Shown: piece after piece, positions 1 to 60,911 of the stretch
Numbering within the stretch: position 1 is the first letter of the stretch
Layout: each line of letters opens with the position of its first letter
IMG/VR virus record: IMGVR_UViG_3300012348_000136
Span: 1 to 64,000 of that record
Reading direction: 5' to 3' (one strand)
From: a virus
Lineage: Duplodnaviria; Heunggongvirae; Uroviricota; Caudoviricetes
DNA length: 64,000 bases
Translations under genes and position numbers: made by a program
Notes under the pieces: generated by a model
Databases searched by the model: none
What the model was told of the DNA's origin: nothing
The model's input: the letters and a program-made list of their open reading frames with translations, nothing else

Positions 1-46
1 TTGGGGATTTTTGACGAAAATTTGTGAAAATTTATGAAAAAAGTTA

Positions 47-75
47 TTTACAAGCCGGCATTTTCCGTTTATAAT
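47..75 (+). promoter_or_regulatory. sigma70-like early promoter in a repeated promoter plus 5'UTR cassette
   Basis: -35 TTTACA, 17-nt spacer, TATAAT. Followed by the conserved leader gatctcgtaaggaaaaccaccac and an ATG at 104. AT-rich TTTGTGAAAA repeats lie upstream. Confidence 0.6.
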
Positions 76-103
76 GATCTCGTAAGGAAAACCACCACAG
101 AAT

Positions 104-289
104 ATGACCGAAACTGCTAAAACCGCCCGCAAGAATCTGATCGCCGAAATCGCCCGCCGCCACGCGGCTGACCGCGAGTTTGCCAAATCCGTGGCCGTCA
201 AGGAATCCACCTCGACCGCTGATGAACATGACGCAATCATCGCCGAAGAGTTTGAGCGCCTTGAAAAGGCCAGCGTGATCCTCGGCTAA
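104..289 (+). CDS. hypothetical early protein (61 aa)
   Basis: ORF directly downstream of the promoter cassette with an AAGGAAA Shine-Dalgarno sequence. Confidence 0.5.
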   Translation: MTETAKTARKNLIAEIARRHAADREFAKSVAVKESTSTADEHDAIIAEEFERLEKASVILG

Positions 290-396
290 TTTCAACGGTT
301 CTTAACTTTATGTTCCTAACTTTACTCCTAATATGCATAGGATTGTTATCTTACTATCTTAGCACATTCTTTGACCCATCTATCTAAATTCATTAT

Positions 397-552
397 GTCC
401 ATTTACATTATTGCTGCTTCTCTTGTCGGTTGGCTTTTTCCGGAGTTTCTTAAAATGCTTGCTCCTCGGAATTATAGTGTCCCTTGGACGATGAACGCTA
501 TGTGCGCTTTCATCGGCGGTGCGGTCGCACATTACCTTCTCACCCACTAATA
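397..552 (+). CDS. small hydrophobic peptide (about 51 aa)
   Basis: ORF MSIYIIAASLVGWLF.. read by hand; not in the supplied track. Confidence 0.2.
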
Positions 553-563
553 CACACTACATT

Positions 564-824
564 ATGAAAACCAAAGGATTCACGCTTATTGAACTGCTCA
601 TTGTTATCACAATTGTTGCAGCAGTTGCGATGTTAGTCTTCGGCATTGTGAATGGTGTCAACAATCCAGAAGAGTACGACTCTGATGTTGACTACACCTA
701 CTTTGCTCCAGAGATTGAAACTGCACGTTCACAACGTCGTATGGCCGAAGAAATGCAACGGCAAAATGACCTGCTGCAACGCCGCCTGGAACTCCTCGAG
801 CAACAAAACTCTAAAAATGAATGA
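564..824 (+). CDS. prepilin-like protein (type IV pilin or pseudopilin N-terminal signal)
   Basis: N-terminus MKTKGFTLIELLIVITIVAAVAML matches the class III signal motif G|FTLIELL plus a hydrophobic helix. Start refined from track ORF 519..824. Confidence 0.5.
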   Translation: MKTKGFTLIELLIVITIVAAVAMLVFGIVNGVNNPEEYDSDVDYTYFAPEIETARSQRRMAEEMQRQNDLLQRRLELLEQQNSKNE

Positions 825-927
825 AATTGCTAAAGCTCAAATTGCACTAAGAAGACTGACAATCGGTTCATCTGAATGGTGGACTGCACTCGATAAACTT
901 CGATCACTTGAACAAAAATCAAAATGA
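817..927 (+). CDS. small ORF (36 aa)
   Basis: Internal ATG of track ORF 652..927; overlaps the end of the pilin-like gene. Confidence 0.25.
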   Translation: MNEIAKAQIALRRLTIGSSEWWTALDKLRSLEQKSK

Positions 928-1328
928 AACAACCTCTACCACACCCTCATGCTAAACTTGCCCAGGAATACTGGACGGAAGCTGCCATTGACATTAATGC
1001 TTGGAAAAATTGGGAGTATCAAACAATTGATGGTGTGTGGCGTTCTTGCACCACAGCGCCTCGTTTTGAGACTTATATACAATACCGCCGCAAACCTAAG
1101 ACGATTAAGATCGGCAACTATGATGTTCCTGAGCCAATAAGAGAGGCACTGAAGAACGGGACCGGATATTACATTCCATCTTTTGTGGCGCCTAATAAAG
1201 TTTGGGCGTATTCGTGGGACGGCGGCGGTATTGACCAACACGTACTAGAGTGTGGCCTAATCCACCTCACTGCAGAAGCTGCAAGGCTCCATGCGGAAGC
1301 TCTAATCTCATTAACGAAATCACCATGA
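924..1328 (+). CDS. hypothetical protein (134 aa)
   Basis: Track ORF; start overlaps the previous stop in the usual phage style. Confidence 0.5.
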   Translation: MKQPLPHPHAKLAQEYWTEAAIDINAWKNWEYQTIDGVWRSCTTAPRFETYIQYRRKPKTIKIGNYDVPEPIREALKNGTGYYIPSFVAPNKVWAYSWDGGGIDQHVLECGLIHLTAEAARLHAEALISLTKSP

Positions 1329-1456
1329 AACGTCTTGCACAAAACTCACTTGAGATGCGAAACCTCGTGCGTCATCGCGTCGCTCCTCCAACGATTGCCT
1401 TCAAGGATCGTAAGAAGGAAATGAAGCGCAAAGCCTGCCGAAAGAAAGAATACTAA
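1325..1456 (+). CDS. small basic protein (43 aa)
   Basis: Internal ATG of track ORF 1250..1456 placed just after the stop of the previous gene. Confidence 0.3.
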   Translation: MKRLAQNSLEMRNLVRHRVAPPTIAFKDRKKEMKRKACRKKEY

Positions 1457-1468
1457 ATAACTACTTCT

Positions 1469-2155
1469 ATGGGAATGTTCGACTACTTTGAAATCAATAC
1501 GTCTCTATTGCCAACTGTTCCTAGTGAACTGATGGTGAGAAAAGATGGTTATTTTGTATTTCAGACAAAAGACACTGAAATGCGGGCAATGTCGACGTAC
1601 ATTCAGAACGCGTCCGGTAGGCTGATCTTAAAGAACACAACTGGTGAATTTGTCCCAGGTGAACCGGTTGGCGAAGATGCAGACTTTTTTGCAAAGCTAA
1701 ATTCAATAGGTTCATATGTCGTAAAAGACACATGGTATGAAGAGCAGCAAATAACAGACACAATTAGTTTTTACACTAGCCTAAGGCATCCGAAGTCTGA
1801 CAACAGCGATCGGTATGTTTACGGCTGGGTTGAATATTCCGCAAAGTATGAGTGTGGGAGTCTACAAGGCATCACGCTAAAAGAGTATACACCTCCTAAA
1901 GAATACACTGATGATGAATTGGCTGTTGAGAGATTAGCTAAGGAAAAAGCACGTGCACATTTTCAATCAAAGCTGATAACTATCCGAAAAGAAAATCCAA
2001 CACCCGAACAGCATCTTATTGATTCTATTTCAGCGATTTGTCGTAACGATGAAGCGCTATATGATGAAACTGATTTGATTCGCGCGATAAATTCTATAAA
2101 CAACCTAATTGAGGTATATCGAGAAAAGCATGATCCACATTACAGACCAACCTAA
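1469..2155 (+). CDS. hypothetical protein (228 aa)
   Basis: Track ORF. Confidence 0.5.
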   Translation: MGMFDYFEINTSLLPTVPSELMVRKDGYFVFQTKDTEMRAMSTYIQNASGRLILKNTTGEFVPGEPVGEDADFFAKLNSIGSYVVKDTWYEEQQITDTISFYTSLRHPKSDNSDRYVYGWVEYSAKYECGSLQGITLKEYTPPKEYTDDELAVERLAKEKARAHFQSKLITIRKENPTPEQHLIDSISAICRNDEALYDETDLIRAINSINNLIEVYREKHDPHYRPT

Positions 2156-2303
2156 AGAAAGACTCTATGAATATAGAGGTAAGCAATTCAAATGCGATGA
2201 AAGAACAATCGCTGCTCTAAACTATGCACTTGCATTAAACGGCAGCGAGGAAAGATATGTTCTTGTAACAAAAACCAAAAAGACAAATGGCAACGACGAA
2301 TGA
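2130..2303 (+). CDS. hypothetical small protein
   Basis: Track ORF 2109..2303 trimmed to an internal ATG. Confidence 0.3.
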   Translation: MIHITDQPKERLYEYRGKQFKCDERTIAALNYALALNGSEERYVLVTKTKKTNGNDE

Positions 2304-2580
2304 TATCACTGGCGCCGAAATTAAAAGCGGCATCTATAGCGCACAAGGACGCGATAACCATGATCGTATCTTTGCGAAAAAGACTGCGGCTGAATGGCTA
2401 GAGTTCCTACCGGAATGCAAAGGATGGACTATCCTTGATCCTGATGGCTGGCGCTACGATGACGGAATCACGCTTGAGTCAAAGATTTCATGCACGGAAT
2501 TTATTCGTCGCTTTAACAAAAGCACTAGAAGCATTATATTAGGTCCAGTTTTGCAACCGAAGAAAAATGACGAAGTATAA
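2287..2580 (+). CDS. hypothetical protein (97 aa)
   Basis: Track ORF. Confidence 0.45.
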   Translation: MATTNDITGAEIKSGIYSAQGRDNHDRIFAKKTAAEWLEFLPECKGWTILDPDGWRYDDGITLESKISCTEFIRRFNKSTRSIILGPVLQPKKNDEV

Positions 2581-2848
2581 CATAATCATTAGCGAAGGCT
2601 GCACTGCTTTCTACACTGACGTGAACGGAAAGACTGTCGGTGGGAGCTATGAACCAACACGATTGACGGAAGAAGAAGAAAACGAACTTGTTGATTATCT
2701 GCTTGTCAAAGTCAAAGAAGGTATCACAAATAGCACAATTAGTCTTAACGCATTGATTGGTCTTTTTCAATATGATGACTACGAGACTGATGAATATTCG
2801 TGTGAGCAATGCGGAGATTCCGTAAGCCGAACAATTTACAACATATGA
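2567..2848 (+). CDS. hypothetical protein (93 aa), Cys-containing C-terminus
   Basis: Track ORF. Confidence 0.45.
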   Translation: MTKYNIIISEGCTAFYTDVNGKTVGGSYEPTRLTEEEENELVDYLLVKVKEGITNSTISLNALIGLFQYDDYETDEYSCEQCGDSVSRTIYNI

Positions 2849-3240
2849 GCTACAATCTTTTTCTTGATGATGTTCGTAAACCCGACGATGCATGGTTGTA
2901 TGATCAAAAAGTAAAGTTGTGCGAGGCAAGCAACATTCACAACTGGGTGATTGTTCGCGATTATGACCAATTTGTCAAAATGATCCGTGACGGCGGTATT
3001 CCTACTGTCGTTTCATTTGACCATGATCTTCACTTTGAACATATGCGTCATTACTTTGATGTCACGTCCAAATGCGGAGTCGTTGAGTATGGTAATCTCA
3101 AGTATAAGACAGGACTATCATGTGCACAGTACCTAATTGATGCCTGTCGTGAAAAGAACGTGTCTCTTCCACGCTGTTATGTTCATAGTGCAAATGAATG
3201 GGGTCGCGAAAACATCAAGAAACTACTTGGGATTGACTAA
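2845..3240 (+). CDS. hypothetical protein (131 aa)
   Basis: Track ORF 2809..3240 with start moved to the ATG at 2845. Confidence 0.45.
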   Translation: MSYNLFLDDVRKPDDAWLYDQKVKLCEASNIHNWVIVRDYDQFVKMIRDGGIPTVVSFDHDLHFEHMRHYFDVTSKCGVVEYGNLKYKTGLSCAQYLIDACREKNVSLPRCYVHSANEWGRENIKKLLGID

Positions 3241-3249
3241 AGTTTTTTA

Positions 3250-3278
3250 TTTACAAACCGGAAGATTTGGTTTATAAT
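3250..3278 (+). promoter_or_regulatory. sigma70-like promoter
   Basis: TTTACA-N17-TATAAT. Confidence 0.55.
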
Positions 3279-3292
3279 AGTTCTATCAAACA

Positions 3293-3379
3293 ATGGTTTT
3301 ATTACTTTTACTTTTAATTTGTTGGGGCGAATGGGAAATTGCCTTAATGCTATACATACTTACATTAATCTTTGATTAA
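3293..3379 (+). CDS. small hydrophobic peptide (28 aa)
   Basis: Hand-read ORF MVLLLLLLICWGEW.. directly after the promoter. Confidence 0.2.
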   Translation: MVLLLLLLICWGEWEIALMLYILTLIFD

Positions 3380-3382
3380 ACT

Positions 3383-3487
3383 ATGAGCTACGGTATCCTA
3401 TTCATACTTGCGATAATTGCATACGTGTGTGATTATTGCATAGTTGCTGCAATATTGTTATTCTTATTCTTTCTTTTAGATGACTAG
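3383..3487 (+). CDS. small membrane peptide (34 aa)
   Basis: Hand-read ORF MSYGILFILAIIAYVCDYCIVAAILLFLFFLLDD; its stop overlaps the next ATG. Confidence 0.3.
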   Translation: MSYGILFILAIIAYVCDYCIVAAILLFLFFLLDD

Positions 3488-3827
3488 TGACATTTACTAC
3501 ACATACGCAACACGTGAAGAGCTACTTGCGGTAGGTGCAGATCCTGAGCATATCTTCGAGAACATTGCGCCTGATGGAGATACAATTCCATTACAGCAAG
3601 CGTCTCTAACCGAAGAACAATGTCATGCACTTATTCCTCAAGGAGGATATTGTTATTCTCGAAAGAATGGTAAGTTTGTCTATTGTCCTTTCCTTGACTC
3701 TATTCCAACTATGCCTAAGCAAAGCAATGGCTTTTGTCACTACCTTAAGCAAGGTGACTTCACCTCACCCGGTACAGATTTGCTTTGGGATAGCTGCAAA
3801 TGCTGTGGAGTAAAAGATTATGAATAG
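3480..3827 (+). CDS. hypothetical Cys-rich protein (115 aa)
   Basis: Track ORF. Confidence 0.5.
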   Translation: MTSDIYYTYATREELLAVGADPEHIFENIAPDGDTIPLQQASLTEEQCHALIPQGGYCYSRKNGKFVYCPFLDSIPTMPKQSNGFCHYLKQGDFTSPGTDLLWDSCKCCGVKDYE

Positions 3828-4164
3828 TAACATGACAACATTTAAAATTCGCGGAGAGACTATATATGACCGCATGAAGCAGTTTGCAGATCATTTAACC
3901 AAAGAGGGTATACAAGGTCGCGAACGTACCAAATTATTCAATCGGTTCTGCAAAGACCACCTTCGCGAAGGTAAGTATCTCATCAAGGTATCGCGAAAGA
4001 ATAAACAAAACTATTGCGGCGAAGGCAATCTATACATTGACTATACATACACTGCGGACGGATGGCTTGTGTTAAGTAAACGCGCAAATGCTCAATGGTT
4101 TACGGCAAAGGAAGCCGCGGAATTTGTAAGCCGCGTTAAAGGATTTAAAGTAGTGAAAAGGTAA
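3820..4164 (+). CDS. hypothetical protein (114 aa)
   Basis: Track ORF. Confidence 0.5.
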   Translation: MNSNMTTFKIRGETIYDRMKQFADHLTKEGIQGRERTKLFNRFCKDHLREGKYLIKVSRKNKQNYCGEGNLYIDYTYTADGWLVLSKRANAQWFTAKEAAEFVSRVKGFKVVKR

Positions 4165-4165
4165 T

Positions 4166-4381
4166 ATGATTCCTGAAAAAGATAAAAAGTATGCAATCGC
4201 TTTTCATCACCCACATTGGCGTGAATGCGACTTTGTTGGGATTGCGATGTGCAACGGCGAGCTAGATGGATTTGGTGAAGAAGACGACTATGAACAGTGG
4301 TATGGCTTCGTTAATCCAAAAGATCCAGACGACACTCTGTTCTTTGCATCTCAAGATATCGTATGTGAAGTGAAAGAATAA
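4166..4381 (+). CDS. hypothetical acidic protein (71 aa)
   Basis: Track ORF. Confidence 0.45.
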   Translation: MIPEKDKKYAIAFHHPHWRECDFVGIAMCNGELDGFGEEDDYEQWYGFVNPKDPDDTLFFASQDIVCEVKE

Positions 4382-4382
4382 T

Positions 4383-4559
4383 ATGGACCCGAACATTGAA
4401 AAGATCATAGAACTCGAGAAGGAAAAATCTGAGCTTGAGACTGAAGCTATTTACTTATACCAGACGTTGTGTAATATCCTAAGTATTGCTAGCGTTAATG
4501 GGCAGGTGTTTTATGTTGCCAACTCTGCGGTAACTGCATACGAACAACGCCGAAAGTAA
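4383..4559 (+). CDS. small ORF (about 58 aa)
   Basis: Hand-read ORF MDPNIEKIIELEKEKSELE.. in the gap between track ORFs. Confidence 0.3.
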   Translation: MDPNIEKIIELEKEKSELETEAIYLYQTLCNILSIASVNGQVFYVANSAVTAYEQRRK

Positions 4560-4561
4560 AC

Positions 4562-4846
4562 ATGGACATAACGATCAAAGCAAAAAATGGAGACATTCAT
4601 GAATTTGAATTTTTTAAATCGTGGGGTTTAAGAAATCCAAATACATGTGTATTCCAATACTATTGCCGTCGCAGCGATAATATTGAAATGGGAATACAAA
4701 TACTACCTCTTATGTTTTGGAAAGCATTTGGATTTTCGAGAGATTACTTTAATGATTTACGTATGAATGCCAAACATCGCCGTCGCATATTCATCGGCCT
4801 CGGCTTCTTTGAATTATTTTATGACGTATATGACAATGACGCGTGA
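4562..4846 (+). CDS. hypothetical protein (94 aa)
   Basis: Track ORF. Confidence 0.45.
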   Translation: MDITIKAKNGDIHEFEFFKSWGLRNPNTCVFQYYCRRSDNIEMGIQILPLMFWKAFGFSRDYFNDLRMNAKHRRRIFIGLGFFELFYDVYDNDA

Positions 4847-4847
4847 A

Positions 4848-5309
4848 ATGAAATTCCGTCTGTGGGACTATGAAAAGAAGACTATGGTTTACGCCGATAG
4901 TCTGCAGCAATTGTCGTTGATCGTTAAAGAGAGCGGTAAGTCATATGATCAATTTGCAATTCAGCAATTTAGCGGTAAGTATGATATTTATAAATTCCCG
5001 ATTTACGATGGAGACATTGTTGAATTAGTTCTTGCGTTGCAGACAGATGACCATGGTCGCAAACACGGTCCTGCAGATTCATTTGGTGTGTATGAAGTCT
5101 TCTATCGTGAGCGCAGTGCTGCATACTTCCTTCGTGTACATCGCAGTAATTGGCTTGATACATGGTTCACAACTGAGAAGCAAGCTGCCAAACTAACGAT
5201 TGATCCATTGTGTCCACATGTGACATGCTTGGAACGTGAATTGGGTAACTTCGGTATTATGCACGTCATCGGCAACATCTACGAAAACCCTGAACTACTA
5301 GAACAATGA
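4848..5309 (+). CDS. YopX-like phage protein, paralogue 1
   Basis: N-terminus MKFRLWDYEKK and C-terminus IGNIYENPELLEQ are shared with the next gene. Start chosen among several in-frame ATGs. Confidence 0.5.
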   Translation: MKFRLWDYEKKTMVYADSLQQLSLIVKESGKSYDQFAIQQFSGKYDIYKFPIYDGDIVELVLALQTDDHGRKHGPADSFGVYEVFYRERSAAYFLRVHRSNWLDTWFTTEKQAAKLTIDPLCPHVTCLERELGNFGIMHVIGNIYENPELLEQ

Positions 5310-5668
5310 GCAGAGAACTTAAATTTAGAATCTGGGATAAGCAGATGCGATACTTCTTATCTGAAACTGAAGCTCGTCATTATTTTTGTTATGATATCTT
5401 TACACAAAGCGATTTTATCGTTCAACAATACACTGGCTTGAAAGACAAGAATGGTGCTGAGATTTATGAAGGTGACATCGTTCGTGCAGTTACTGTGAAT
5501 GATGGGACTGAATTCTATGCACCGATTGTATTTTCTCCATGGGCGGGTTATTACCTTGACAGCCCAATTGAGTCATGCGATCGCGACGTATATGATGGCG
5601 GTGTTAGTATTGGAACAGAATGCGAAGTCGTCGGCAACATTCACGAAAATCCCGAACTACTAGACTAA
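5306..5668 (+). CDS. YopX-like phage protein, paralogue 2
   Basis: N-terminus LKFRIWDKQ; C-terminus VGNIHENPELLD. Confidence 0.5.
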   Translation: MSRELKFRIWDKQMRYFLSETEARHYFCYDIFTQSDFIVQQYTGLKDKNGAEIYEGDIVRAVTVNDGTEFYAPIVFSPWAGYYLDSPIESCDRDVYDGGVSIGTECEVVGNIHENPELLD

Positions 5669-5669
5669 C

Positions 5670-5867
5670 ATGGCATACATCCAAGAACAATACTGTAAAG
5701 CATGTGACTGTGTAAGATCATTCATAAACAATGTCTGTCCACAATGCGAGGAGCGTAAACGTCGAACCGAAATGGCTGCATGGCAAGCATTAACTTCTGA
5801 TGAAAAGTTGCTTGACATTCACCGACGTTTGCTTGCACTTGAAAACCGTAAAGAAATCAGATACTAA
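5670..5867 (+). CDS. zinc-ribbon protein (65 aa)
   Basis: CxxC...CxxC spacing (CKACDC...CPQCEE). Confidence 0.45.
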   Translation: MAYIQEQYCKACDCVRSFINNVCPQCEERKRRTEMAAWQALTSDEKLLDIHRRLLALENRKEIRY

Positions 5868-5868
5868 A

Positions 5869-6309
5869 ATGACACCAGCTGCTTCACTATTTAAGATTTG
5901 GAACAAGACACTAGGATGTTACGATGACCCATCGGATTACGCTCTACAATGCAACTTATATGCATTGCGTTATGATTGGAAGTCTGACTCTCAGCATACA
6001 CGTTCATGTGGACCGGTTTATTCTGAATATGCAGTTCAACTTTTTAGTGGACTGTTTGATAAAAACCGCAATCCAATTTATGATGGCGATTTTTTGATTG
6101 ATGAATCTGAATCTCGAAATGATATGTATTTCATTTATGAGGTCAGTATGTACTGCGGTAGCTATCGTAAGCCATACATCTATAAAGCATTTGCGAATTC
6201 GGATCAAGTCCACGTTGTTGGTCGAGTGAATAATGATGAAGCGCTTGACTTTTCTAAGTTGTCTATAGCAGGCAGCATATATTCAACTCCTCTTAATGTA
6301 TACCGATGA
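5869..6309 (+). CDS. hypothetical protein, possibly a YopX-like paralogue
   Basis: Internal ATG of track ORF 5800..6309; N-terminus LFKIWNKTL. Confidence 0.45.
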   Translation: MTPAASLFKIWNKTLGCYDDPSDYALQCNLYALRYDWKSDSQHTRSCGPVYSEYAVQLFSGLFDKNRNPIYDGDFLIDESESRNDMYFIYEVSMYCGSYRKPYIYKAFANSDQVHVVGRVNNDEALDFSKLSIAGSIYSTPLNVYR

Positions 6310-6816: not shown

Positions 6817-7350
6817 ATGATTGATCGAGTATTCTGGGACATTGACGAAACGCTAATTCACACTGAGTTTAGCCCGTTTGGAGAAGGCTTTAATGACGTT
6901 CGACTCGTACTCGAAGATCACATATACTATACAAAGATTCGACCGTGCAGCATGCATCTTGTTGAATTTAGTCGTCAACTTGTAGGTTCCGAAAATGTTT
7001 ACATCCTGACGACAGCGACTCGTGATTACGCGCAAGAAGTTAATCGTCTTGCTGGTTGGAACTTTCCACATAGTCATATCTACTCTCGCGAGGACTTAAA
7101 GAAGCACCGTTACTCTACTGCATATGGTGGTTCTGGAACGGCGCAGAATAAAGAAATTGCATCAAGTAATAATGTCTTAATTGACAATTTGCCTCCTCGT
7201 GAGAACTGGGACAAGATGTCTTTCATCGGAATTGATAGTGGACGCTACTTGAAGATCCAAGATTACTACGGCGTAGATTTTCCAGATTGCGCCTTTGTCG
7301 AAGACGTCGAAAAATTCTTACTTAAACTACACAACAATGAACAACACTGA
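6817..7350 (+). CDS. HAD-superfamily phosphatase-like protein
   Basis: N-terminal FWDIDETLIHT matches HAD motif I (DxDxT). Confidence 0.5.
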   Translation: MIDRVFWDIDETLIHTEFSPFGEGFNDVRLVLEDHIYYTKIRPCSMHLVEFSRQLVGSENVYILTTATRDYAQEVNRLAGWNFPHSHIYSREDLKKHRYSTAYGGSGTAQNKEIASSNNVLIDNLPPRENWDKMSFIGIDSGRYLKIQDYYGVDFPDCAFVEDVEKFLLKLHNNEQH

Positions 7351-8323
7351 AGACATCCGCAAAAAGGAAAAGAAACTATCTCGCGATCACTGGATGTGTC
7401 GCATCCAAAAATACGCATTTGACATTGATGCACCTTCATACTACATGGGATACTGTCCATTCTTCTGGATGACATGGGTTGCGGTTGTATTGTTTCCAAT
7501 CATCTACGTTGGCCGTGTGTGTGCGAAACATCTTGTTAAGTTTAACGATTACTTAGACAGTAGGAGTAAGCCTATCCGCAATGCTATCACGAAGTCTGCT
7601 GATCCGTTTCGACCATTGCAGCCGACACACGAAGAGCTATGTCTCATTGCAGATTACCTCGATGAATTTGAGCAGTATCGGGATAATGAAAAACGCGACA
7701 GGGGATCATTGTTTGCATTCCTAAACATTTATGTAGATCTTCGTAACTATACATATAAATGCTCAAAACGTATTAGTAGATGGTTTGACGAAAATCCAAA
7801 TTGGCAAGAGACACATCTGCCAATTGCACGTGAATATGAAAAGAAGCTAGCAGCTGAAAGAAAGCTTGCAGAAGAACGCGAAAGACAAAAAGCGCTTCGT
7901 CGCCGTAAGGTTTCTAATTACACCAGCATCTGTGGGAAGTTTCTTTTTAAGATCATTATCCCGATTCTTATTGGTGCATTGGCTTTTATTGTGTACAAGC
8001 TTCTTGCGCTTGCATATGCAACAATCACTCTATTTGCAGTCCTTACAGTGTTACTTGGATCAATCGTCGCAGGTATCAGTTACTATCTAACACTCATCAT
8101 TTGCGACTTCCTCAAATCATTTGTCCTCACTGATAAAACTGCCGATACTTTCTGTGGAGTTATGGGTCGGATCACCGATTGCTTTGGGCGTATTGGAAAC
8201 ATGATTAAATCTGTGTATGCATTCATTGTTGATACCGTGAAGTTGACATACAAAGCAGAATGTCCAATGATCATCTGGGGTGAAGAAACCGGAAAAATTA
8301 CACGTCGTGAAAAAGAAATGTAA
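7337..8323 (+). CDS. integral membrane protein
   Basis: Several long hydrophobic helices (FFWMTWVAVVLFPIIYVG; ILIGALAFIVYKLLALAYATITLFAVLTVLLGSIV). Confidence 0.45.
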   Translation: MNNTEDIRKKEKKLSRDHWMCRIQKYAFDIDAPSYYMGYCPFFWMTWVAVVLFPIIYVGRVCAKHLVKFNDYLDSRSKPIRNAITKSADPFRPLQPTHEELCLIADYLDEFEQYRDNEKRDRGSLFAFLNIYVDLRNYTYKCSKRISRWFDENPNWQETHLPIAREYEKKLAAERKLAEERERQKALRRRKVSNYTSICGKFLFKIIIPILIGALAFIVYKLLALAYATITLFAVLTVLLGSIVAGISYYLTLIICDFLKSFVLTDKTADTFCGVMGRITDCFGRIGNMIKSVYAFIVDTVKLTYKAECPMIIWGEETGKITRREKEM

Positions 8324-11457: not shown

Positions 11458-11486
11458 TTTACATGTGGTCGGTTTCCGTTTATAAT
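11458..11486 (+). promoter_or_regulatory. sigma70-like early promoter in a repeated cassette
   Basis: TTTACA-N17-TATAAT plus the conserved leader gtaaggaaaccaccaca. Confidence 0.6.
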
Positions 11487-11516
11487 GATCTTGTAAGGAA
11501 ACCACCACAATAAATC

Positions 11517-12774: not shown

Positions 12775-13725
12775 ATGAATAAACAACGCCTACATCTAAA
12801 TTGGGTCACGTCGACTCATCAAACCTACTTCGTTTCTTTGGACGGAGATTACTGTCCAATTGCGAAAACCGAAAATCTACTTCGTATTCCTTTGAAAGAG
12901 AATACATTCCCAGGCGGAGAAGTTCACCTTCGTCTTGACATCAATGAAGATCAAGTAGCTGACAACGCGCATCTTATTATTGCTGCGCGATACAACACCG
13001 CCGCCGACATCCTTAAGATTGTTCTTGCAGCTGATGCTGCACGCCGTCTTGGATTTTCTAAGACCACGCTTATTCTTCCATACTTCCCCGCGGCGCGTCA
13101 AGATCGTGTCTGTAATGTTGGCGAGCCTCTTACCGTCAAGATCTTTGCTGATATGATTAACGGATGCGGCTTTCATGCGGTTCATATTCTCAGCCCGCAC
13201 AGCGAAGTCACTCCGGCATTGCTGAATAATGTCGTGGTTCATGACGAATGCGGTTTGGTTGAGCGTGCACTGTGTAGGTGGATTACACAAACAAATTTGA
13301 CGACCATCAATATCGTTTGTCCCGATGCTGGCGCAGGCAAGCGTGTTGGTAAGGTTGCATCTTACCTTGCAAAGCGCTTTCCGCAAAACGGTGTCAATCT
13401 TATCCGTTGTGAAAAAGTCCGCGATGTGCGCGACGGCTCGCTTAAGGAGTTCTTTGTCCAAGCCGATGATCTTGGCGGATATCCAACGCTTATCATCGAT
13501 GACATTGTTGCATATGGTGGTACTTTCCTTGGTCTTGCTGACAAGTTGCGTGAACGTAACTGTGGTGAGCTTGGTATCTTCATCTCGCATGCTGACTGTG
13601 AAGAAGGCTTGATGAACCTGCGCCAAAAATTCAATTATGTTGTCACAACTGACTCTAAACGCGATTATGCGGGTTTCGCTTTGGATAATGACAAAACCGT
13701 TGATATCCTACCTTTTAAAATCTAA
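12775..13725 (+). CDS. PRPP-synthetase-family pyrophosphokinase (Prs-like)
   Basis: PRPP-binding loop LIIDDIVAYGGTF; about 316 aa; divergent N-terminus. Confidence 0.6.
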   Translation: MNKQRLHLNWVTSTHQTYFVSLDGDYCPIAKTENLLRIPLKENTFPGGEVHLRLDINEDQVADNAHLIIAARYNTAADILKIVLAADAARRLGFSKTTLILPYFPAARQDRVCNVGEPLTVKIFADMINGCGFHAVHILSPHSEVTPALLNNVVVHDECGLVERALCRWITQTNLTTINIVCPDAGAGKRVGKVASYLAKRFPQNGVNLIRCEKVRDVRDGSLKEFFVQADDLGGYPTLIIDDIVAYGGTFLGLADKLRERNCGELGIFISHADCEEGLMNLRQKFNYVVTTDSKRDYAGFALDNDKTVDILPFKI

Positions 13726-13937: not shown

Positions 13938-14221
13938 AACTACTACTATTCACTGGAATTGGGCTAGCGTCGCTAGCTGCGGTCTATTGCATCTTCTTCA
14001 CATCGGTTGTTGATAAGATTATGCTTAAGATTGCACGCCACCGCGTTTCTGCGGTGGTAGCCAATCTCTCTACAATTAAAGAAGAAGCTGAGCGTCGTCA
14101 ACGACAGCTTTCAGATATGAAAAACGCTTTAGAGGAAGATGTAAAGACTGCGAAAAAAATCGCAGCTTCCGTCCCTCTACTAAACAAGAAAACGAAAAAC
14201 AAAGATACACATGAAAATTAA
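13934..14221 (+). CDS. small membrane protein with coiled coil (95 aa)
   Basis: N-terminal transmembrane segment; precedes the SPFH protein, resembling an NfeD-type partner. Confidence 0.4.
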   Translation: MKLLLFTGIGLASLAAVYCIFFTSVVDKIMLKIARHRVSAVVANLSTIKEEAERRQRQLSDMKNALEEDVKTAKKIAASVPLLNKKTKNKDTHEN

Positions 14222-15506
14222 GCTAATCCTAGCGGCGGTTGTAGTTTCGCTAATCTGTATGGTTGGTGTAAACTTGGTGCATAAAGTTGATGATACTGAA
14301 TGGCAAGCTGTTCAATATTTAAGCGGTGAAGTTGAAATTAAGGAAGACCCTGGAGTCTACTTTGCCTTCTTCCCAAAGGTAACAGAGTATGACCGAAATA
14401 TGTATTTCGAGTTCTCTAAGTTGCCGTCTCCAATGTCGCCAAACGATGAATCAACGCGTGTGACATTCAATGACGGCGGTACCGCTGATCTTGACGCCAC
14501 AATTCGTATTGCTTCACCGGCCACAAAGGAAAAGAAGCGAGAGTTTCACCGACAGTTTAATGGCTCGTCTGTAAACATCAAAGCTGCAATTTGGTCTCAC
14601 ATGGCAAACGTAATTAAGGCATCTGGTCCTCTTATGTCTGCATCTGAAAACCAAGCTGCACGTAAGTCAGAGTTCAACACTGTTGTTCTTAATCAGCTAA
14701 ATGATGGACTATATGAAATGCGTCGCGTTGAGCGTGAGATTGAACAGCTAGATGAAAAAGGCCAGAAGCTCCGCGTTGCAGCAACCGAAGTCATTCTTGC
14801 CAAGGATGGTAAACCAGTCATCTCTCAGGTATCTCCACTTGCGACATATGGCGTAACTGTAACGCAGTTCTCAATCACCGCAACGGAGTATGACGAACAG
14901 ACCAAAAAGCAATTCAGCACCAAGAAGGATGCATTCCTTGCAGCCGAATCTGCAAAGGCGCAGCGTGAAGGTGAAGTCCAACAGCGTCTGATGGTTATTG
15001 AGAAGGGCTTGCGTGAAAAGGCTGAAACCGAAGCAAAGTCCAACCTTGAGAAAGCACAAGCAGTGATTACCGCAATGAAAGAAAAGGAAGTTGCGGAAAC
15101 TCAAATTGCAAAAGAACTTGCGGTTGCAGAGACACAGAAGAAAATTGCTGAAACCGCTGCACAGCAAGCACTTGAAGTTGCAAAGCTAGAAAAGCAAGCA
15201 GCTGAAGAACAAGCGCAAAAGATTCGTATCCTTGCGGAAGCAGAAAAGGATAAGATTGCGCAAGCAGGTGCAATCACTGAAAAGGATCGCGTGACGCTTG
15301 AGGTTCAGCGTGAAACCGCGATTGGCGTTGCAACTGCACTTGCTAAGGTTAATGTTCCTCAGGTTGTTATCAGCGGAAAGGATGCCTCGGGTAACGGCGG
15401 CGGTTCCGCTACACAGTCTGAGCTGATCAACCTAATGCTCCTGAAGCAAAACGGATACCTTGATGCCATGAAGACTCCGTCGATTGGCACCCAAACCGTG
15501 AAATGA
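14211..15506 (+). CDS. SPFH/band-7 (stomatin, HflK/C-like) membrane protein
   Basis: N-terminal transmembrane segment, SPFH core, then a long Ala/Glu/Lys-rich coiled coil (EAEKDKIAQA). Confidence 0.6.
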   Translation: MKIKLILAAVVVSLICMVGVNLVHKVDDTEWQAVQYLSGEVEIKEDPGVYFAFFPKVTEYDRNMYFEFSKLPSPMSPNDESTRVTFNDGGTADLDATIRIASPATKEKKREFHRQFNGSSVNIKAAIWSHMANVIKASGPLMSASENQAARKSEFNTVVLNQLNDGLYEMRRVEREIEQLDEKGQKLRVAATEVILAKDGKPVISQVSPLATYGVTVTQFSITATEYDEQTKKQFSTKKDAFLAAESAKAQREGEVQQRLMVIEKGLREKAETEAKSNLEKAQAVITAMKEKEVAETQIAKELAVAETQKKIAETAAQQALEVAKLEKQAAEEQAQKIRILAEAEKDKIAQAGAITEKDRVTLEVQRETAIGVATALAKVNVPQVVISGKDASGNGGGSATQSELINLMLLKQNGYLDAMKTPSIGTQTVK

Positions 15507-15521: not shown

Positions 15522-15557
15522 GAGGTGGGGCGGCTACGGTCTCCCCACCTCTTTTTT
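15522..15557 (+). terminator. rho-independent terminator
   Basis: GAGGTGGGG/CCCCACCTC stem followed by TTTTTT. Confidence 0.7.
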
Positions 15558-15591
15558 GTGAAAAAAATATGAAAATTTGTGAATTTTTTTA

Positions 15592-15620
15592 TTTACAAGC
15601 TGACATTTTCCGTTTATAAT
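15592..15620 (+). promoter_or_regulatory. sigma70-like early promoter in a repeated cassette
   Basis: TTTACA-N17-TATAAT plus the conserved leader. Confidence 0.6.
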
Positions 15621-15645
15621 GATTCTGTAAGGAAACCACCACATT

Positions 15646-16104
15646 ATGAAATTCAAACTTTGGGACAACAAAAATCGCGAGTACATCAACAACCGTCACG
15701 CCGCAATTGACTGCGAAGGTTTTCTGTTTGACGTAAGCAACGATGATCCGATCGAGGCTGAAGTTCTTTATTCGACAGGAGTGACCGACTGTGACGGAAC
15801 CGAACTGTATGTCGGTGATGTGGTTGAAGCAATGAGATCTTCTGCTCGAGTTATGAATGGCGAATTGTTCATGGTCATTTTTAATGAAAAGCTGCGTTGC
15901 TTTGGACTAGTGCGAATTGACGGTCGGTCTGTCGAAAATTACATGGACCTTTTTGCAAGTGACGGCCGCAAAATCCCAGCGCTTAGCCGAGTGATGCCAA
16001 GCGTCGCCGTTCAAGTCACCACCTCAAAGAAGAAGGCTTTCCGCAAGAAAGGTGACATCAGCACTAACATGACTGCACAAATTCTTTTCTGCGGAGAAAA
16101 ATAA
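15646..16104 (+). CDS. YopX-like phage protein, paralogue
   Basis: N-terminus MKFKLWDNKNREY. Confidence 0.5.
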   Translation: MKFKLWDNKNREYINNRHAAIDCEGFLFDVSNDDPIEAEVLYSTGVTDCDGTELYVGDVVEAMRSSARVMNGELFMVIFNEKLRCFGLVRIDGRSVENYMDLFASDGRKIPALSRVMPSVAVQVTTSKKKAFRKKGDISTNMTAQILFCGEK

Positions 16105-16871: not shown

Positions 16872-18458
16872 ATGAAACCGAATAATGTCATTACTCTTGC
16901 ACCGCTCAATGTTGACGGTTACAAGGTCGATCACCGCCGTCAATATCCGTCCAACTCCGCGCTTGTCTTCAGCAATCTGACAGCTCGCGGCACTCGCATT
17001 AACAGCCTTGATAAGATCATTTTCTTTGGTCTGCAGTACTTCATGGACGAGTATCTGATCAAGGACTGGAACAACAACTTCTTCAATCTCCCACTTGATG
17101 AAGTCACTGAGCAATATGGATACGATCTGCTTGGTTACCTTGGCGTGAACAACATCGGTGATCAGCACATCCGCGACCTCCACGCTCTTGGCCATCTGCC
17201 GCTTGAGATTTGGGCGCTGCCTGAAGGCTCGAATGTCGACCTTCGCGTTCCGATGTTCGTCGTGTGGAATACCGACGCTCGCTTCTACTGGCTGACAAAT
17301 GCTATTGAGACCATTCTCAGTACTACAATGTGGATGCCGTGTACCAGCGCTACAACCGCGCTGATGTACCGCCGTATTCTTCAGCGCTATGCTGATGAGA
17401 CGAATCCGGAGATGGGTGAATTTGTCCAATGGCAAGGTCACGACTTCTCTTTCCGCGGTCACTCTTCGCGTGAATCTGCTTGCACTAGCGGCGGCGGTCA
17501 CCTCCTGTCTTTCACTGGAACTGATACACTGCCGGCAATTAGCTTTCTTGAGAAGCACTATGATTGCAGCCGCCGTACTCAGCTTGTTGGTGGTTCGGTT
17601 GCGGCTACTGAACACAGTGTTATGTGCATGGGTGGTATGGAAGATGAAGTTGAAACCTTCAAGCGCCTCATCACTGAGATCTATCCGTCCGGTATTGTGT
17701 CTATTGTGTCCGATACTTGGGACTTCTGGAATGTTGTTAATCCAAACGGTGGCATTGCAGCTCAACTCAAAGATCTAATCATGGCTCGTGATGGTAAGGT
17801 TGTCATTCGTCCTGACAGTGGTGATCCAGTTAAGATTGTGACTGGCTACACCGAAGATGAAATCATTTGTGAAGATGGTAAGATTTACGAAAAGCAATTT
17901 AAAGCTCTAGCGAATGCATTTCCATCGAAAGGCAAGGAACTCACCGAGCTTGAAGTCAAGGGTATGATTCAGTGCCTTTGGGAAATCTTCGGTGGTACCG
18001 AAACGTCCACTGGTTACAAGCAGCTTGACCGCCACATCGGTGCAATCTACGGCGACAGTATTACGCTTGAACGTGCCGAGCAAATCTGCGCACGCCTCAA
18101 GGCTAAAGGCTTTGCTTCGACCAACCTTGTGTATGGTATCGGATCTTACACTTACCAATATGTTACTCGCGATACGCATATGTTTGCGGTTAAGAGCACC
18201 TACGGCGAAGTCTTCGATGCTGAAGGTAATCGTGTTGGAATTGAGATCTTCAAGGATCCCAAGACTGACAGCGGAATTAAGAAATCCGCAAAAGGCTTGA
18301 CTGCCGTTTATCGTACCGCCGATGGTTTTGAACTGAAGGACCAAGCAACTTGGGACGATGTTAAGAACTGCGCGTTCGTTCAGGTCTTCAAAGATGGCAA
18401 CGTTGTGAAGCGCTGGACTCTGAACGAGGTTCGTGGCGAGGTTGCCAAGAGCTTCTAA
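16872..18458 (+). CDS. nadV: nicotinamide phosphoribosyltransferase-family enzyme (NadV/NAMPT-like)
   Basis: 528 aa; overall NAMPT-like features as recalled from T4-like phage KVP40 NadV. The antisense ORF 16854..17765 is regarded as spurious. Confidence 0.6.
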   Translation: MKPNNVITLAPLNVDGYKVDHRRQYPSNSALVFSNLTARGTRINSLDKIIFFGLQYFMDEYLIKDWNNNFFNLPLDEVTEQYGYDLLGYLGVNNIGDQHIRDLHALGHLPLEIWALPEGSNVDLRVPMFVVWNTDARFYWLTNAIETILSTTMWMPCTSATTALMYRRILQRYADETNPEMGEFVQWQGHDFSFRGHSSRESACTSGGGHLLSFTGTDTLPAISFLEKHYDCSRRTQLVGGSVAATEHSVMCMGGMEDEVETFKRLITEIYPSGIVSIVSDTWDFWNVVNPNGGIAAQLKDLIMARDGKVVIRPDSGDPVKIVTGYTEDEIICEDGKIYEKQFKALANAFPSKGKELTELEVKGMIQCLWEIFGGTETSTGYKQLDRHIGAIYGDSITLERAEQICARLKAKGFASTNLVYGIGSYTYQYVTRDTHMFAVKSTYGEVFDAEGNRVGIEIFKDPKTDSGIKKSAKGLTAVYRTADGFELKDQATWDDVKNCAFVQVFKDGNVVKRWTLNEVRGEVAKSF

Positions 18459-19338: not shown

Positions 19339-19854
19339 ATGAAAACGAACACTACTGTATACACTCCCCCTAGATACTCTAAGAGATACTCTAAGAGAGA
19401 CAGCTCCGCTCCTTCAGTCTTCCTAGCAGGAAGTATTGAAATGGGTAACGCTGAAGATTGGCAAACAAAAGCTATTGATTATTTTAGGCGCGTTATTCCG
19501 ATTGGAAACTCTATCGACTTCTATAATCCTCGGCGTCCTGATTGGGATTCTAGTTGGGTTCAAGATCTAAACAGTCCCAACTTCTATGAGCAGGTATCTT
19601 GGGAACTTGATCATTTGCTTGCAGCTGACTTCATTTATATGTACTTTGATCCATCTACTCAAAGTCCCATTTCTCTCCTTGAGCTTGGCATGTTTGCAAA
19701 TAGCGGCAAGATGGTTGTATGCTGTCCCAATGGATTCTATCGTAAAGGAAACGTCGATATCGTTTGCCAAAAGATGCAGGTACCACTCTTTACTAACTTT
19801 GAGGCAAGCCTAATTGCGCTAAGAAACAGAATTGGAGAATACGCTGAATGGTGA
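19339..19854 (+). CDS. nucleoside 2-deoxyribosyltransferase-family protein
   Basis: VFLAGSIE ... LLELGMFANSGK pattern of the Nuc_deoxyrib_tr fold. Confidence 0.5.
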   Translation: MKTNTTVYTPPRYSKRYSKRDSSAPSVFLAGSIEMGNAEDWQTKAIDYFRRVIPIGNSIDFYNPRRPDWDSSWVQDLNSPNFYEQVSWELDHLLAADFIYMYFDPSTQSPISLLELGMFANSGKMVVCCPNGFYRKGNVDIVCQKMQVPLFTNFEASLIALRNRIGEYAEW

Positions 19855-20369: not shown

Positions 20370-20900
20370 ATGAAAACTCTACAAACACCTGAAGAATATG
20401 GATACGTCCAGCATGGAAACATTGTCCTCTTTCAGAAAGGACCGCTTAGCCAATGGTATGGTGGCTTTAAAGATCAGGATAGTTGTTTCTATGATCAATA
20501 TAGCGGCTATCATTTTAATTGTTGTGAACAATGGATGATGGCTCAAAAGGCGTTTCTTTTTAGTGATTTGGATACAGCCGACCTTATTATTGCAGAGAGA
20601 CATCCAGGAACCCAAAAGGACCTCGGTCGACGTGTTAAGAACTTTGATCCTACGCTTTGGGACGCCGTGAAAGAAGACATCGTGTTTCTTGGAAACTATT
20701 ATAAGTTTACTAAGTGCAATCATTTACGTGACTTTTTGTTTTCGTATGATGTTAATACAATCTTTGCTGAGGCTGCTCCATGGGATCCAATCTGGGGAAT
20801 CGGACTTGGGCCAAATGATCCGGATGCAGCCGATCCTTCAAAGTGGCGTGGTCAAAATCTGCTTGGTAAAGCAATCAGTCGCGTTCGTAAATTACTCTAA
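20370..20900 (+). CDS. NADAR-domain (YbiA-like, DUF1768) protein
   Basis: FYDQYSGYHFNCCEQWMMAQKAFLF ... DPIWGIGLG ... WRGQNLLGKAI match NADAR family motifs. Confidence 0.6.
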   Translation: MKTLQTPEEYGYVQHGNIVLFQKGPLSQWYGGFKDQDSCFYDQYSGYHFNCCEQWMMAQKAFLFSDLDTADLIIAERHPGTQKDLGRRVKNFDPTLWDAVKEDIVFLGNYYKFTKCNHLRDFLFSYDVNTIFAEAAPWDPIWGIGLGPNDPDAADPSKWRGQNLLGKAISRVRKLL

Positions 20901-22897: not shown

Positions 22898-22926
22898 TTT
22901 ACATTGGTCGGTTTTCCGTTTATAAT
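22898..22926 (+). promoter_or_regulatory. sigma70-like early promoter in a repeated cassette
   Basis: TTTACA-N17-TATAAT plus the conserved leader; a TTCACATTTTGTGAA inverted repeat lies upstream. Confidence 0.6.
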
Positions 22927-22948
22927 GATCCTGTAAGGAAACCACCAC

Positions 22949-24837: not shown

Positions 24838-24946
24838 AATCTAAGGAAGATTCTGCATTATGCGGCGGAATATCCGTCAGGTTCACCGAAAATGCCGAAA
24901 TTCTTGCTTTGTGGAGAAAATTTGTGAAAATTTATGAATTTTCTTG

Positions 24947-24975
24947 TTTACATCCAAGCATTTTCCGTTTATAAT
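24947..24975 (+). promoter_or_regulatory. sigma70-like early promoter in a repeated cassette
   Basis: TTTACA-N17-TATAAT plus the conserved leader. Confidence 0.6.
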
Positions 24976-25002
24976 GATTCTGTAAGGAAACCACCGCAAA
25001 AT

Positions 25003-25419
25003 ATGATCAAAGTTACCAATTGCCGAGCTAGAGGCGGCCGCGAAAAACGAATCAATGGCGCTCGCGCGTATGTTAATTCATCGGTCGGAAAGGTCGTTGA
25101 CAAATTCTTCGACGACAACAAAATCTATGCTCTCAATTTCACTTGCAGCACGTGGAATGCATTGAAGCGGAAGGCAGTCGAGTCCGACATTGCCGATTTG
25201 AAGACGATTTTTGGCGAAGACGCTGAAATCCGCTGGTCAAAAACCGCCGGTTGCTCATGCGGATGCTCTCCAGGATATGTCGTTGACGGACAAATGAAGT
25301 CCGAATTCCGCAATAAGAATGTCTGGATCGACATCGAGTCTTCCACCGATCATCTTGTGAAACTCCTCCCGGACTTCACCAAGAAACTGGCGGCTGAAAT
25401 TGCCAAGAAAAATTCTTGA
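25003..25419 (+). CDS. hypothetical protein
   Basis: Track ORF 24934..25419 trimmed to the ATG following the cassette leader. Confidence 0.45.
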   Translation: MIKVTNCRARGGREKRINGARAYVNSSVGKVVDKFFDDNKIYALNFTCSTWNALKRKAVESDIADLKTIFGEDAEIRWSKTAGCSCGCSPGYVVDGQMKSEFRNKNVWIDIESSTDHLVKLLPDFTKKLAAEIAKKNS

Positions 25420-57605: not shown

Positions 57606-57691
57606 CCTAAAAATCACAAATTTTCACAAAAATCCGTAACTTATTGATTTTCAATGGGCAAGATTTTTTGTGAAAATTTGTGAAAAAAGTT

Positions 57692-57720
57692 ATTTACAAG
57701 CGGTCGTTTTCCGTTTATAA
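57692..57720 (+). promoter_or_regulatory. sigma70-like early promoter in a repeated cassette
   Basis: TTTACA-N17-TATAAT plus the conserved leader. Confidence 0.6.
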
Positions 57721-57745
57721 TGATCTCGTAAGGAAACCACCGCAA

Positions 57746-57920
57746 CATGAAAAAGAAATTTACTGTAACTGTCGCTGATGAAAAAACCGCAATTCGCGTG
57801 TGTAAACTTTTGAGAGGCATTTATCCCGATATTTCTAGGGAAGGTAAGGTTGTCGGTACATCGGCCGCTGGAACTTCTCAGAAAGGCTTAGAGGAATGGG
57901 TGAAGGAAGCAATCGCATAA
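57746..57920 (+). CDS. small protein (58 aa if read through an A8 run; 22 aa otherwise)
   Basis: ATG after the cassette. The frame hits a stop at 57814 unless one A of the A8 run (57780-57787) is skipped, in which case the ORF ends exactly at the TAA at 57918-57920. Confidence 0.3.
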
Positions 57921-57927
57921 AATTTTA

Positions 57928-57956
57928 TTTACATGTGCTAAGTTTCCGTTTATAAT
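57928..57956 (+). promoter_or_regulatory. sigma70-like early promoter in a repeated cassette
   Basis: TTTACA-N17-TATAAT plus the conserved leader. Confidence 0.6.
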
Positions 57957-57982
57957 GATCTCGTAAGGAAAACCACCGCAAC

Positions 57983-60665: not shown

Positions 60666-60740
60666 CCTCCAGTAGCTCAGTGGTAGAGCGGGTTCTTTAT
60701 AAGGGCCGGGTCGTTGGATCGTTCCCAACCTGGAGGACCA
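60666..60740 (+). tRNA. tRNA, anticodon UAU (Ile-like), CCA encoded
   Basis: Hand-folded cloverleaf; anticodon stem has two G-U pairs; T-loop ATCGTTC. Confidence 0.5.
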
Positions 60741-60743
60741 TAA

Positions 60744-60818
60744 CCGCCTGTAGCTCAGAGGCAGAGCGCGCGCCCGATAAGTGCGAGGTCGTGATATCGT
60801 AATTCACCAGGCGGACCA
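60744..60818 (+). tRNA. tRNA-Ile (GAU)
   Basis: Hand-folded; anticodon loop CCGATAA; CCA encoded. Confidence 0.6.
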
Positions 60819-60827
60819 TTTCATAAC

Positions 60828-60902: not shown

Positions 60903-60911
60903 CTTTAAATT

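Follow-up and report, generated by a model that had tools for sequence, protein, structure and literature searches.

Several phage proteins are known that disable the type IV pili of their bacterial hosts. Tip and Aqs1 presumably act on PilB and PfsE on PilC, and these inhibitors are non-pilin proteins. To our knowledge, phage proteins of this kind act on cytoplasmic or platform components of the pilus machinery, and none of them is pilin-like. The disabling of host type IV pili by PfsE of Pf4, a small phage protein, is interpreted as superinfection exclusion (PMC8764522). PIT4 of the lytic Pseudomonas phage LSL4 is an early protein that abolishes twitching, which its authors read as infection exclusion (PMC10714779); it consists of 131 amino acids (aa), has neither conserved domains nor a likeness to pilins, and targets the kinase domains of PilS and FleS. 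Here, a gene with a prepilin-like N-terminus is described that is found at positions 564-824 of a 64,000-nt stretch of tailed-phage DNA (IMG/VR record IMGVR_UViG_3300012348_000136, positions 1 to 64,000), hereafter called the window. No homology was detected between its product and PIT4, PfsE, Tip or Aqs1. As judged from the sequences compared below, what is new is a class III (prepilin-type) signal fused to a new conserved helix in a phage-specific protein.

The translation of the open reading frame (ORF; 86 aa plus stop) is MKTKGFTLIELLIVITIVAAVAMLVFGIVNGVNNPEEYDSDVDYTYFAPEIETARSQRRMAEEMQRQNDLLQRRLELLEQQNSKNE. The N-terminus reads MKTKG, followed by FTLIE and 14 hydrophobic residues. The protein passes the curated cut-offs of both Pfam N_methyl (PF07963; 28.0 bits, gathering cut-off 21.2) and NCBIfam TIGR02532 (IV_pilin_GFxxxE; 28.1 bits, cut-off 16.3). 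Residues 4-24 fit the strict PROSITE-type pattern [KRHEQSTAG]-G-[FYLIVM]-[ST]-[LT]-[LIVP]-E-[LIVMFWSTAG](14), and a relaxed prepilin pattern occurs once in the six frames of the window compared to 0.005 times per shuffled window. Because both cut-offs are passed, the strict pattern fits and so few chance occurrences are expected, the motif is regarded as real. The prepilin-type signal proposed in an earlier note on this DNA, with a predicted peptidase site after the Gly, is thereby confirmed.

The same note had considered that translation might begin at an upstream ATG at position 519, which would make the motif internal. At 519, however, the frame has a GTG, which falls within ORF 395..550 just before the gene, and there is no other upstream in-frame start. 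In the homologous loci L003, L006, L009 and L014, an in-frame stop is located 1-8 codons before the ATG with no start codon in between, so that the motif is truly N-terminal in the family. Several homologue loci share the string ..acattATG at the gene start. On this evidence, the start at 564 is the correct one. A Shine-Dalgarno (SD) sequence is absent before the ORF. Since only 6 of the 74 ORFs of at least 100 aa in the window are preceded by GGAG, GAGG or AGGA, the phage is nearly free of such sites and the absence carries no weight. The near-absence of SD motifs may hint at the host of this phage.

A word-indexed search returned 31 homologues of 77-97 aa, and an HMMER profile search of 1.84 billion representatives returned 90 matches, about 70 of which are full-length (70-95 aa). 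The column statistics of the broad family refer to an alignment of 70 members with a mean column identity of 33%. The positions that are specific for pilins are among its best-kept columns. Relative to the predicted cleavage site, position -1 is Gly in 50 members, Ala in 14, Asn in three and Lys in three (Gly or Ala in 64 of 70), while Phe is found at +1 in 60, Thr at +2 in 67, Leu at +3 in 62 and Glu at +5 in 67 members. Pfam N_methyl is matched by 64 of the 70 proteins. Retention of the charged Glu+5 and of a small residue at -1 in a family of such low identity makes a generic signal anchor unlikely and argues for a real interaction with the pilin pathway.

In the C-terminal half of the protein, Asn68 is the sole residue that is invariant in all 70 members; at position 70, 65 of them have Leu and the other five Ile. 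In the close homologues, 15 columns are invariant (P49, E52, A54, R55, S56, R58, R59, E63, R66, N68, D69, L70, L77, L78 and E79). All of them fall into the C-terminal helix, which implies that this helix must bind something conserved. In a codon comparison of six loci, 14 of 14 invariant C-terminal residues vary synonymously, including serine switches between TCN and AGY codons; the conservation thus acts at the protein level. On the same ground, an overlapping alternative-frame ORF (652..927), an RNA element and nucleotide-level constraint were rejected as causes of the C-terminal conservation. From the codon pattern, the ORF is a real gene under protein-level purifying selection.

The family has so far been found only on phage DNA, to which every examined context belongs. 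When family peptide patterns were run against GTDB (185,579 genomes of bacteria and archaea), 57 pattern matches were obtained, none of which was confirmed. A tblastn search of cultured phages with the protein and the family consensus gave no match at E 10, for which the low-complexity filter is the probable cause, so that absence from these phages is not established by it. In IMG/VR, two loci were recovered by a scan, and a degenerate DNA pattern for MKKGFTLIE...QNDL gave 0 matches. The automatic annotation of JGI labels some homologues as 'prepilin-type N-terminal cleavage/methylation domain-containing protein'. Pilins receive no mention in a study of T4-like cyanophages (Sullivan 2010). The RQNDL motif (residues 66-70) lies outside every PHROG match of the window protein and is covered by no Pfam, NCBIfam or PADLOC model.

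A single transmembrane helix is predicted in the protein, followed by 53 residues without any Cys and hence without a D-region disulfide. AlphaFold2 (AF2), run with the family alignment, predicts a helix at residues 8-33, a low-confidence coil at 34-48, a second helix at 49-85 and zero strands (mean pLDDT 75.5). The pLDDT is about 91 at residues 61-80, about 51-52 in the residue blocks covering 31-50 and below 50 at residues 37-41. Net charges of +2, -7 and +1 were obtained for the leader, residues 30-53 and residues 54-86, respectively. From this charge distribution, an N-in/C-out orientation with a periplasmic linker and second helix is predicted. The earlier note had described the residues beyond the signal as acidic, coiled-coil and unlike a pilin head. 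The model agrees with a helical and non-globular segment; acidity applies only to the linker.

Over residues 49-83, hydrophobicity in the 70-member alignment has a period of 3.3-3.5, and the core of the best heptad register is formed by positions 54/57/61/64/68/71/75/78. Asn68 takes a core position and is in this respect similar to the Asn that is buried in leucine zippers forming dimers. On the opposite face of the helix, L70 and L77 make up another conserved hydrophobic stripe, so that a higher-order bundle or a bound partner is equally possible alongside a dimer. In about 11 of the 70 members, the membrane helix is directly followed by one Cys, which recurs in the context [RKG][AGS]-C-[SQ] (P0035, P0036, P0048, P0053, P0056, P0070, P0078, P0079, P0083 and P0087; also L005 and L009). 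This Cys could join two chains by a disulfide and thereby hold a parallel dimer together, or it could be a lipobox-like site.

A profile search of PDB matched pilins and pseudopilins only, and these matches are confined to the first ~30-40 residues. The Geobacter geopilin PilA-N ranks first (E 1e-7), followed by PilA, PilE, MshA, GspG and PpdD. For the C-terminal half, the search gave only weak compositional matches to the Max leucine zipper (E ~0.02). A Foldseek search against viral structures yielded nothing meaningful (best E 8). On the basis of the model, the protein is pilin-like but not a pilin and should not be filed as one, because it has no globular head, no disulfide and no pilus locus.

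The reading tentatively preferred here is that the 564-824 product is a head-less pilin mimic that disturbs pilus or pseudopilus function of the host. The protein would insert N-in/C-out into the inner membrane, where a host prepilin peptidase of the PilD/GspO class would recognise it, cut after Gly5 and N-methylate the new N-terminus. No prepilin peptidase (peptidase A24-like) was found among the window ORFs scanned, including the membrane ORFs, and the enzyme would therefore have to come from the host. Cleavage by enzymes of the PilD type requires Gly-1, and methylation, assembly and intramembrane contacts require Glu+5. The helix with Glu+5 would mix with the pilins in the membrane or dock onto the machinery by which type IV filaments are assembled or sensed; candidate target systems are the type IV pilus, type II secretion and the competence pilus. 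Being headless and carrying a self-associating or partner-binding periplasmic helix, the protein would not allow a normal fibre to be extended. As a decoy or poison subunit, or by a false 'pilin pool' signal, it might thus switch off pilus or pseudopilus function in the infected cell, with the exclusion of pilus-dependent competitors as a possible benefit. The published effects of PIT4 and of the PilA helix of Caulobacter (see below) lend plausibility to this reading. A bolder version appears unlikely at present. In this version, the protein would be a poison pilin that is matured by the prepilin peptidase of the host, is taken up by the assembly platform of the type IV pilus or of type II secretion, dimerises by its RQNDL helix and either caps or jams the fibre or fakes a full pilin pool to a sensor of the PilS/PleC type; infected cells would rapidly lose their pili and resist pilus-dependent competitors, and the strategy would be common to aquatic T4-like and other large phages.

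Several observations weigh against a head-less pilin mimic. The best-conserved part in the close homologues is the C-terminal helix and not the pilin part. No conserved neighbour gene in the contexts examined points to pili, a literature search turned up no paper on such a protein or family, and a hidden Markov model search of phage C48C1, the closest cultured relative, returned no homologue in the initial 150 of its 156 kb. Furthermore, 10 of the 32 close homologues have Asn at -1 (MKNFTL) and one has His (MKHF); the syntenic orthologue in L001 is of the Asn form (MKNFTLAE). PilD is specific for Gly and, weakly, Ala at this position, and the Asn(-1) forms are probably uncleavable by it. As read from the aligned N-termini, the Asn form may have originated from MKNKGFT by one 6-nt deletion of the Lys-Gly codons. 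The Asn(-1) variants retain Thr+2 and Glu+5 and have diversified. The persistence of presumably uncleavable forms means that cleavage cannot be indispensable, while recognition-type features still are. The interpretation given in the earlier note is thus supported in part: its architecture holds, and the Asn(-1) clade complicates it.

An explanation without pili is possible though on balance rather unlikely. The N-terminus would then be a mere N-in/C-out anchor for a periplasmic effector whose C-terminal helix acts, for instance by binding the incoming complex of tape-measure protein and tail tip and blocking DNA entry in analogy to Imm of T4, or by binding another envelope target. The far better conservation of the C-terminal helix than of the membrane segment in close homologues (P49-E79) is in line with such a role, as is the dispensability of cleavage indicated by the Asn(-1) variants. 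The gene is also small, likely early and, in the syntenic contigs, located downstream of the DNA polymerase gene; in T4, imm presumably adjoins gene 43. The small membrane protein Imm binds the tape-measure protein (bioRxiv 10.64898/2026.03.06.709160). Such an effector leaves the retention of Gly/Ala-1, Thr+2 and Glu+5 in 91-96% of a family with 33% identity unexplained. In addition, the architecture of Imm with its four-helix membrane core differs, no PADLOC model matched, and no Pfam family besides N_methyl was found. Three further candidates found no support. Homology to Imm was judged by architecture, since the single predicted transmembrane helix contrasts with the multi-helix core of Imm, which has no prepilin motif. 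As to a PADLOC defence protein, no PADLOC model matched. For a mimic of the FtsB/FtsL/DivIC type, DivIC and FtsL were not among the 25 most-matched Pfam families (70 members, E up to 1), and no other recurrent coiled-coil family was found there.

Less probable still is an inhibitor that mimics a substrate, i.e. a protein that competes for or jams the prepilin peptidase, or an unprocessed prepilin that clogs membrane domains rich in Sec/YidC, with the result that maturation of pilins and pseudopilins collapses. An entire subclade has lost the scissile Gly but kept the recognition elements, as would be expected for a dead-end analogue, and unprocessed PilA1 prepilin is reported to impair the function of the Sec translocon in Synechocystis (PMC8546353). 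Most members, however, keep Gly or Ala at -1 and would be turned over, titration requires high expression, and the invariant RQNDL helix is not accounted for.

A lysis component, such as a short i-spanin-like or a holin/antiholin-like membrane protein with a periplasmic coiled coil, is very improbable. In i-spanins, a periplasmic helix likewise comes after a transmembrane segment, and three of the 70 members weakly match Rz-like spanin PHROGs (best E 1.7e-4). Yet the protein is too short to span the periplasm, no adjacent or embedded ORF with a lipobox (o-spanin) is present, and the overlapping alternative-frame ORF is unconserved. The upstream promoter is of an early type and not the late motif TATAAATA, and the conserved prepilin motif would be unexplained. 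Finally, the motif could have arisen by chance in an ORF that is mis-called or does not code for protein, as the shortness of the ORF, the missing SD and the lack of a tblastn match in the cultured-phage collection might suggest. This is practically dismissed by more than 90 homologous clusters, synonymous variation at every invariant residue, the syntenic position, the phage-wide rarity of SD sites (6 of 74 ORFs) and the expectation of 0.005 motifs per window.

The features of the locus are compiled in Table 1. The gene is the third of a transcription unit (104-289, 395-550, 564-824) that follows the first of seven promoter cassettes, located 490 bp upstream of the gene. The cassette consists of the A/T-rich GAAAATTTGTGAAAATTT, the promoter and a leader containing GTAAGGAAA, with GTAAGGAAACCACCACA just before an ATG. 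Its core occurs seven times on the plus strand versus 0 expected, and the copies starting at 1, 15556, 24901 and 57647 are nearly identical in an alignment. The seven cassettes probably mark early transcription units of the phage. The T4 late-promoter motif TATAAATA occurs eight times in the window compared to 3.4 expected, several copies lying directly upstream of ORF starts, and is not found before position 4985. Given the repeated sigma70-type cassette upstream and no late motif before 4985, the gene is predicted to be early and to be transcribed by the host RNA polymerase from the promoter at 47-75.

Table 1 Features of the prepilin-like locus, its promoter cassettes and its neighbourhood. 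Positions refer to the window unless a contig is named
Feature	Position	Strand	Basis and remarks
Promoter and leader cassette, ~90 bp: GAAAATTTGTGAAAATTT ... TTTACA-17-TATAAT ... GTAAGGAAAACCACCACA	1..106	+	heads the unit with the prepilin-like gene
Sigma70-type promoter, TTTACA - 17 nt - TATAAT	47..75	+	11/12 consensus positions; sequence match, repeated copies
Seven cassette copies	1-106, 11458-11489, 15556-15665, 22898-22929, 24901-25010, 57647-57756, 57928-57959	+	core repeat
First ORF of the unit, 61 aa	104..289	+	syntenic; 85% identity in L001 and L004
Small hydrophobic membrane ORF, 51 aa, directly upstream	395..550	+	84% in L001 and L002, absent from other loci
Prepilin-like gene	564..824	+	86 codons + stop; prepilin motif matches, homologues, codon comparison
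Basic leader MKTKG, predicted prepilin-peptidase cut after Gly5 (codon 576-578)	564..578	+	N_methyl, TIGR02532; -1 column
Pilin-type hydrophobic helix FTLIELLIVITIVAAVAMLVFGIV.., Phe+1, Thr+2, Glu+5 (codon 591-593), predicted transmembrane	579..662	+	AF2; PDB profiles; column statistics
Acidic linker of variable sequence (residues 30-48), predicted to be disordered and to lie in the periplasm	651..707	+	pLDDT, charge, low conservation
Conserved amphipathic C-terminal helix, residues 49-85, PEIETARSQRRMAEEMQRQNDLLQRRLELLEQQ, heptad-like core including invariant Asn68	708..818	+	AF2, periodicity, synonymous variation
RQNDL signature, Asn68 at 765-767	759..773	+	70-member alignment
36-aa ORF overlapping the prepilin-like stop (ATGAATGA), no lipobox	817..927	+	insertion relative to L001 together with ORF 924..1328; outside the conserved context
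Late-promoter motif TATAAATA	36800, 41977, 49022, 59150, 59950, 62948, 63473	+	
Late-promoter motif TATAAATA	4985	-	
cREC_REC gene in relatives	L001 6508-6903, L004 5325-5720, L009 8742-9224, L014 7106-7501		synteny

Seven contigs are syntenic with the window, namely L001 (196 kb), L002, L004, L005, L009, L014 and one further contig. The shared gene order is HSP20, DNA polymerase B, a MazG-like gene, a 311-aa ORF, small ORFs, the prepilin-like gene, further small ORFs and cREC_REC. In six of the seven contigs, DNA polymerase or MazG is found upstream and cREC_REC downstream; L002 (1.8 kb) is too short for either. L009 additionally encodes gp44, gp62 and regA upstream. In L003, L006, L007 and L008, which are phage-like contigs, the gene is found in other surroundings. 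No neighbour gene is consistently linked to the prepilin-like gene across loci, and no pilus or secretion genes are present in any examined context of the family. The 51-aa membrane ORF directly upstream is not an obligate partner, as it is absent from other loci.

Between the prepilin-like gene and a 43-aa ORF (1325-1456), the window contains two ORFs at 817-1328 (36 aa, and 134 aa matching phrog_18768). Both are missing at this position in L001, which marks them as a local insert within a hyperplastic region. A cREC_REC protein (cyclic-phosphate processing receiver) is encoded a few genes downstream at 2809-3240 and is kept in those T4-like syntenic loci that reach that far.

The assignment of the window to a T4-like phage, already made in the earlier note, holds. 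The window encodes UvsX, a gp41-type helicase, T4 RNase H and both subunits of ribonucleotide reductase and contains the TATAAATA motifs, and the syntenic contigs encode gp44/62, regA and gp43. A virion protein of the window shares 45% identity with proteins of cyanomyoviruses. When UvsX is compared, phage C48C1 (Kyanoviridae; 71% identity) and Acidovorax phage ACP17 (60%) are the nearest phages in culture, and a megablast search of window positions 1-6000 against cultured phages gave no match. An array of 16 tRNA genes is located at 60666-63466 (+) and includes two genes each for Ile, Asn and Val. Genes related to NAD are found at 12775-13725, 16872-18458, 19339-19854 and 20370-20900; their products are PRPP-synthetase-like, a nicotinamide phosphoribosyltransferase, nucleoside 2-deoxyribosyltransferase-like and a NADAR domain protein. 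This cluster may serve to salvage or reconstitute NAD+ and in this way counter host defences that deplete NAD. Further membrane proteins are encoded at 14211-15506 (membrane-anchored SPFH/Band 7 protein, 431 aa) and at 7337-8323 (polytopic protein of 328 aa with at least four hydrophobic segments and no match in Pfam or PHROGs).

If the head-less pilin mimic is true, a copied pilin N-terminus would be a new mode of subverting pili, type II secretion and competence, a machinery that is very widespread in bacteria, and the protein would offer a minimal natural scaffold of about 80 residues for blocking these systems. A poison pilin, if true, would be the first pilin-mimic effector directed against pili. 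With the natural Gly-to-Asn series of 'uncleavable' forms, substrate recognition by the prepilin peptidase can be told apart from its cutting. Should the link to pilins be wrong, the protein would still be a conserved periplasmic effector of T4-like phages.

The N-terminus shares with type IV pilins and pseudopilins (PilA, PilE, GspG-K, ComGC-GG) the basic leader, Gly-1, Phe+1, Thr+2, Glu+5 and a hydrophobic helix of ~20 residues. In contrast to them, the phage protein has no alpha/beta head, no antiparallel beta-sheet in the AF2 model and no Cys. Its gene resides in a T4-like phage of lytic type without pilus genes around, and the RQNDL helix matches no pilin family. The best PDB matches are to Geobacter PilA-N ('Geopilin domain 1', 61 aa mature; 2m7g, 6vk9, 7tgg and 9egp; E 1e-7 to 7e-5), which shows that a pilin can be little beyond an N-terminal helix. 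PilA-N pairs with a separately encoded head, PilA-C, from a chromosomal pilus locus. The phage protein, in contrast, itself carries a charged helix that is unrelated, and its gene lacks a partner. At 83 aa, T4 Imm is likewise a small membrane protein encoded by a T4-type phage, and it blocks genome entry.

Among phage protein families, the N-terminal motif is shared by phrog_13280 (matched by 45 of the 70 members), phrog_11263 (39), phrog_10597 (31), phrog_27437 (27), phrog_11596 (26) and phrog_3433 (16), the last of which is annotated as 'pilin'. The other five of these six PHROGs lack an assigned function, and the match of phrog_13280 on the window protein covers residues 1-41 only. By these matches, phage-borne prepilin N-termini are recurrent. 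Mini-prepilins of 68-73 aa that start with MKxKGFTLIELL and continue with unrelated Pro-rich or beta-like C-termini are encoded in L013 (6001-6207; P0125) and by P0132. In phages, the joining of a prepilin N-terminus to various periplasmic modules seems to have happened on more than one occasion.

In Caulobacter, the transmembrane helix of PilA (17 residues, termed CIP) is by itself sufficient to lower pilus function, and it reduces susceptibility to the pilus phage CbK by 77% (PMC7196804). CIP is a synthetic-peptide fragment of a host pilin of the Tad/Flp type and has no sequence relationship to the phage protein. It is sensed by the PleC kinase. A headless pilin helix thus suffices to act against pilus function, and CIP provides a model for how a headless mimic encoded by a phage could act.

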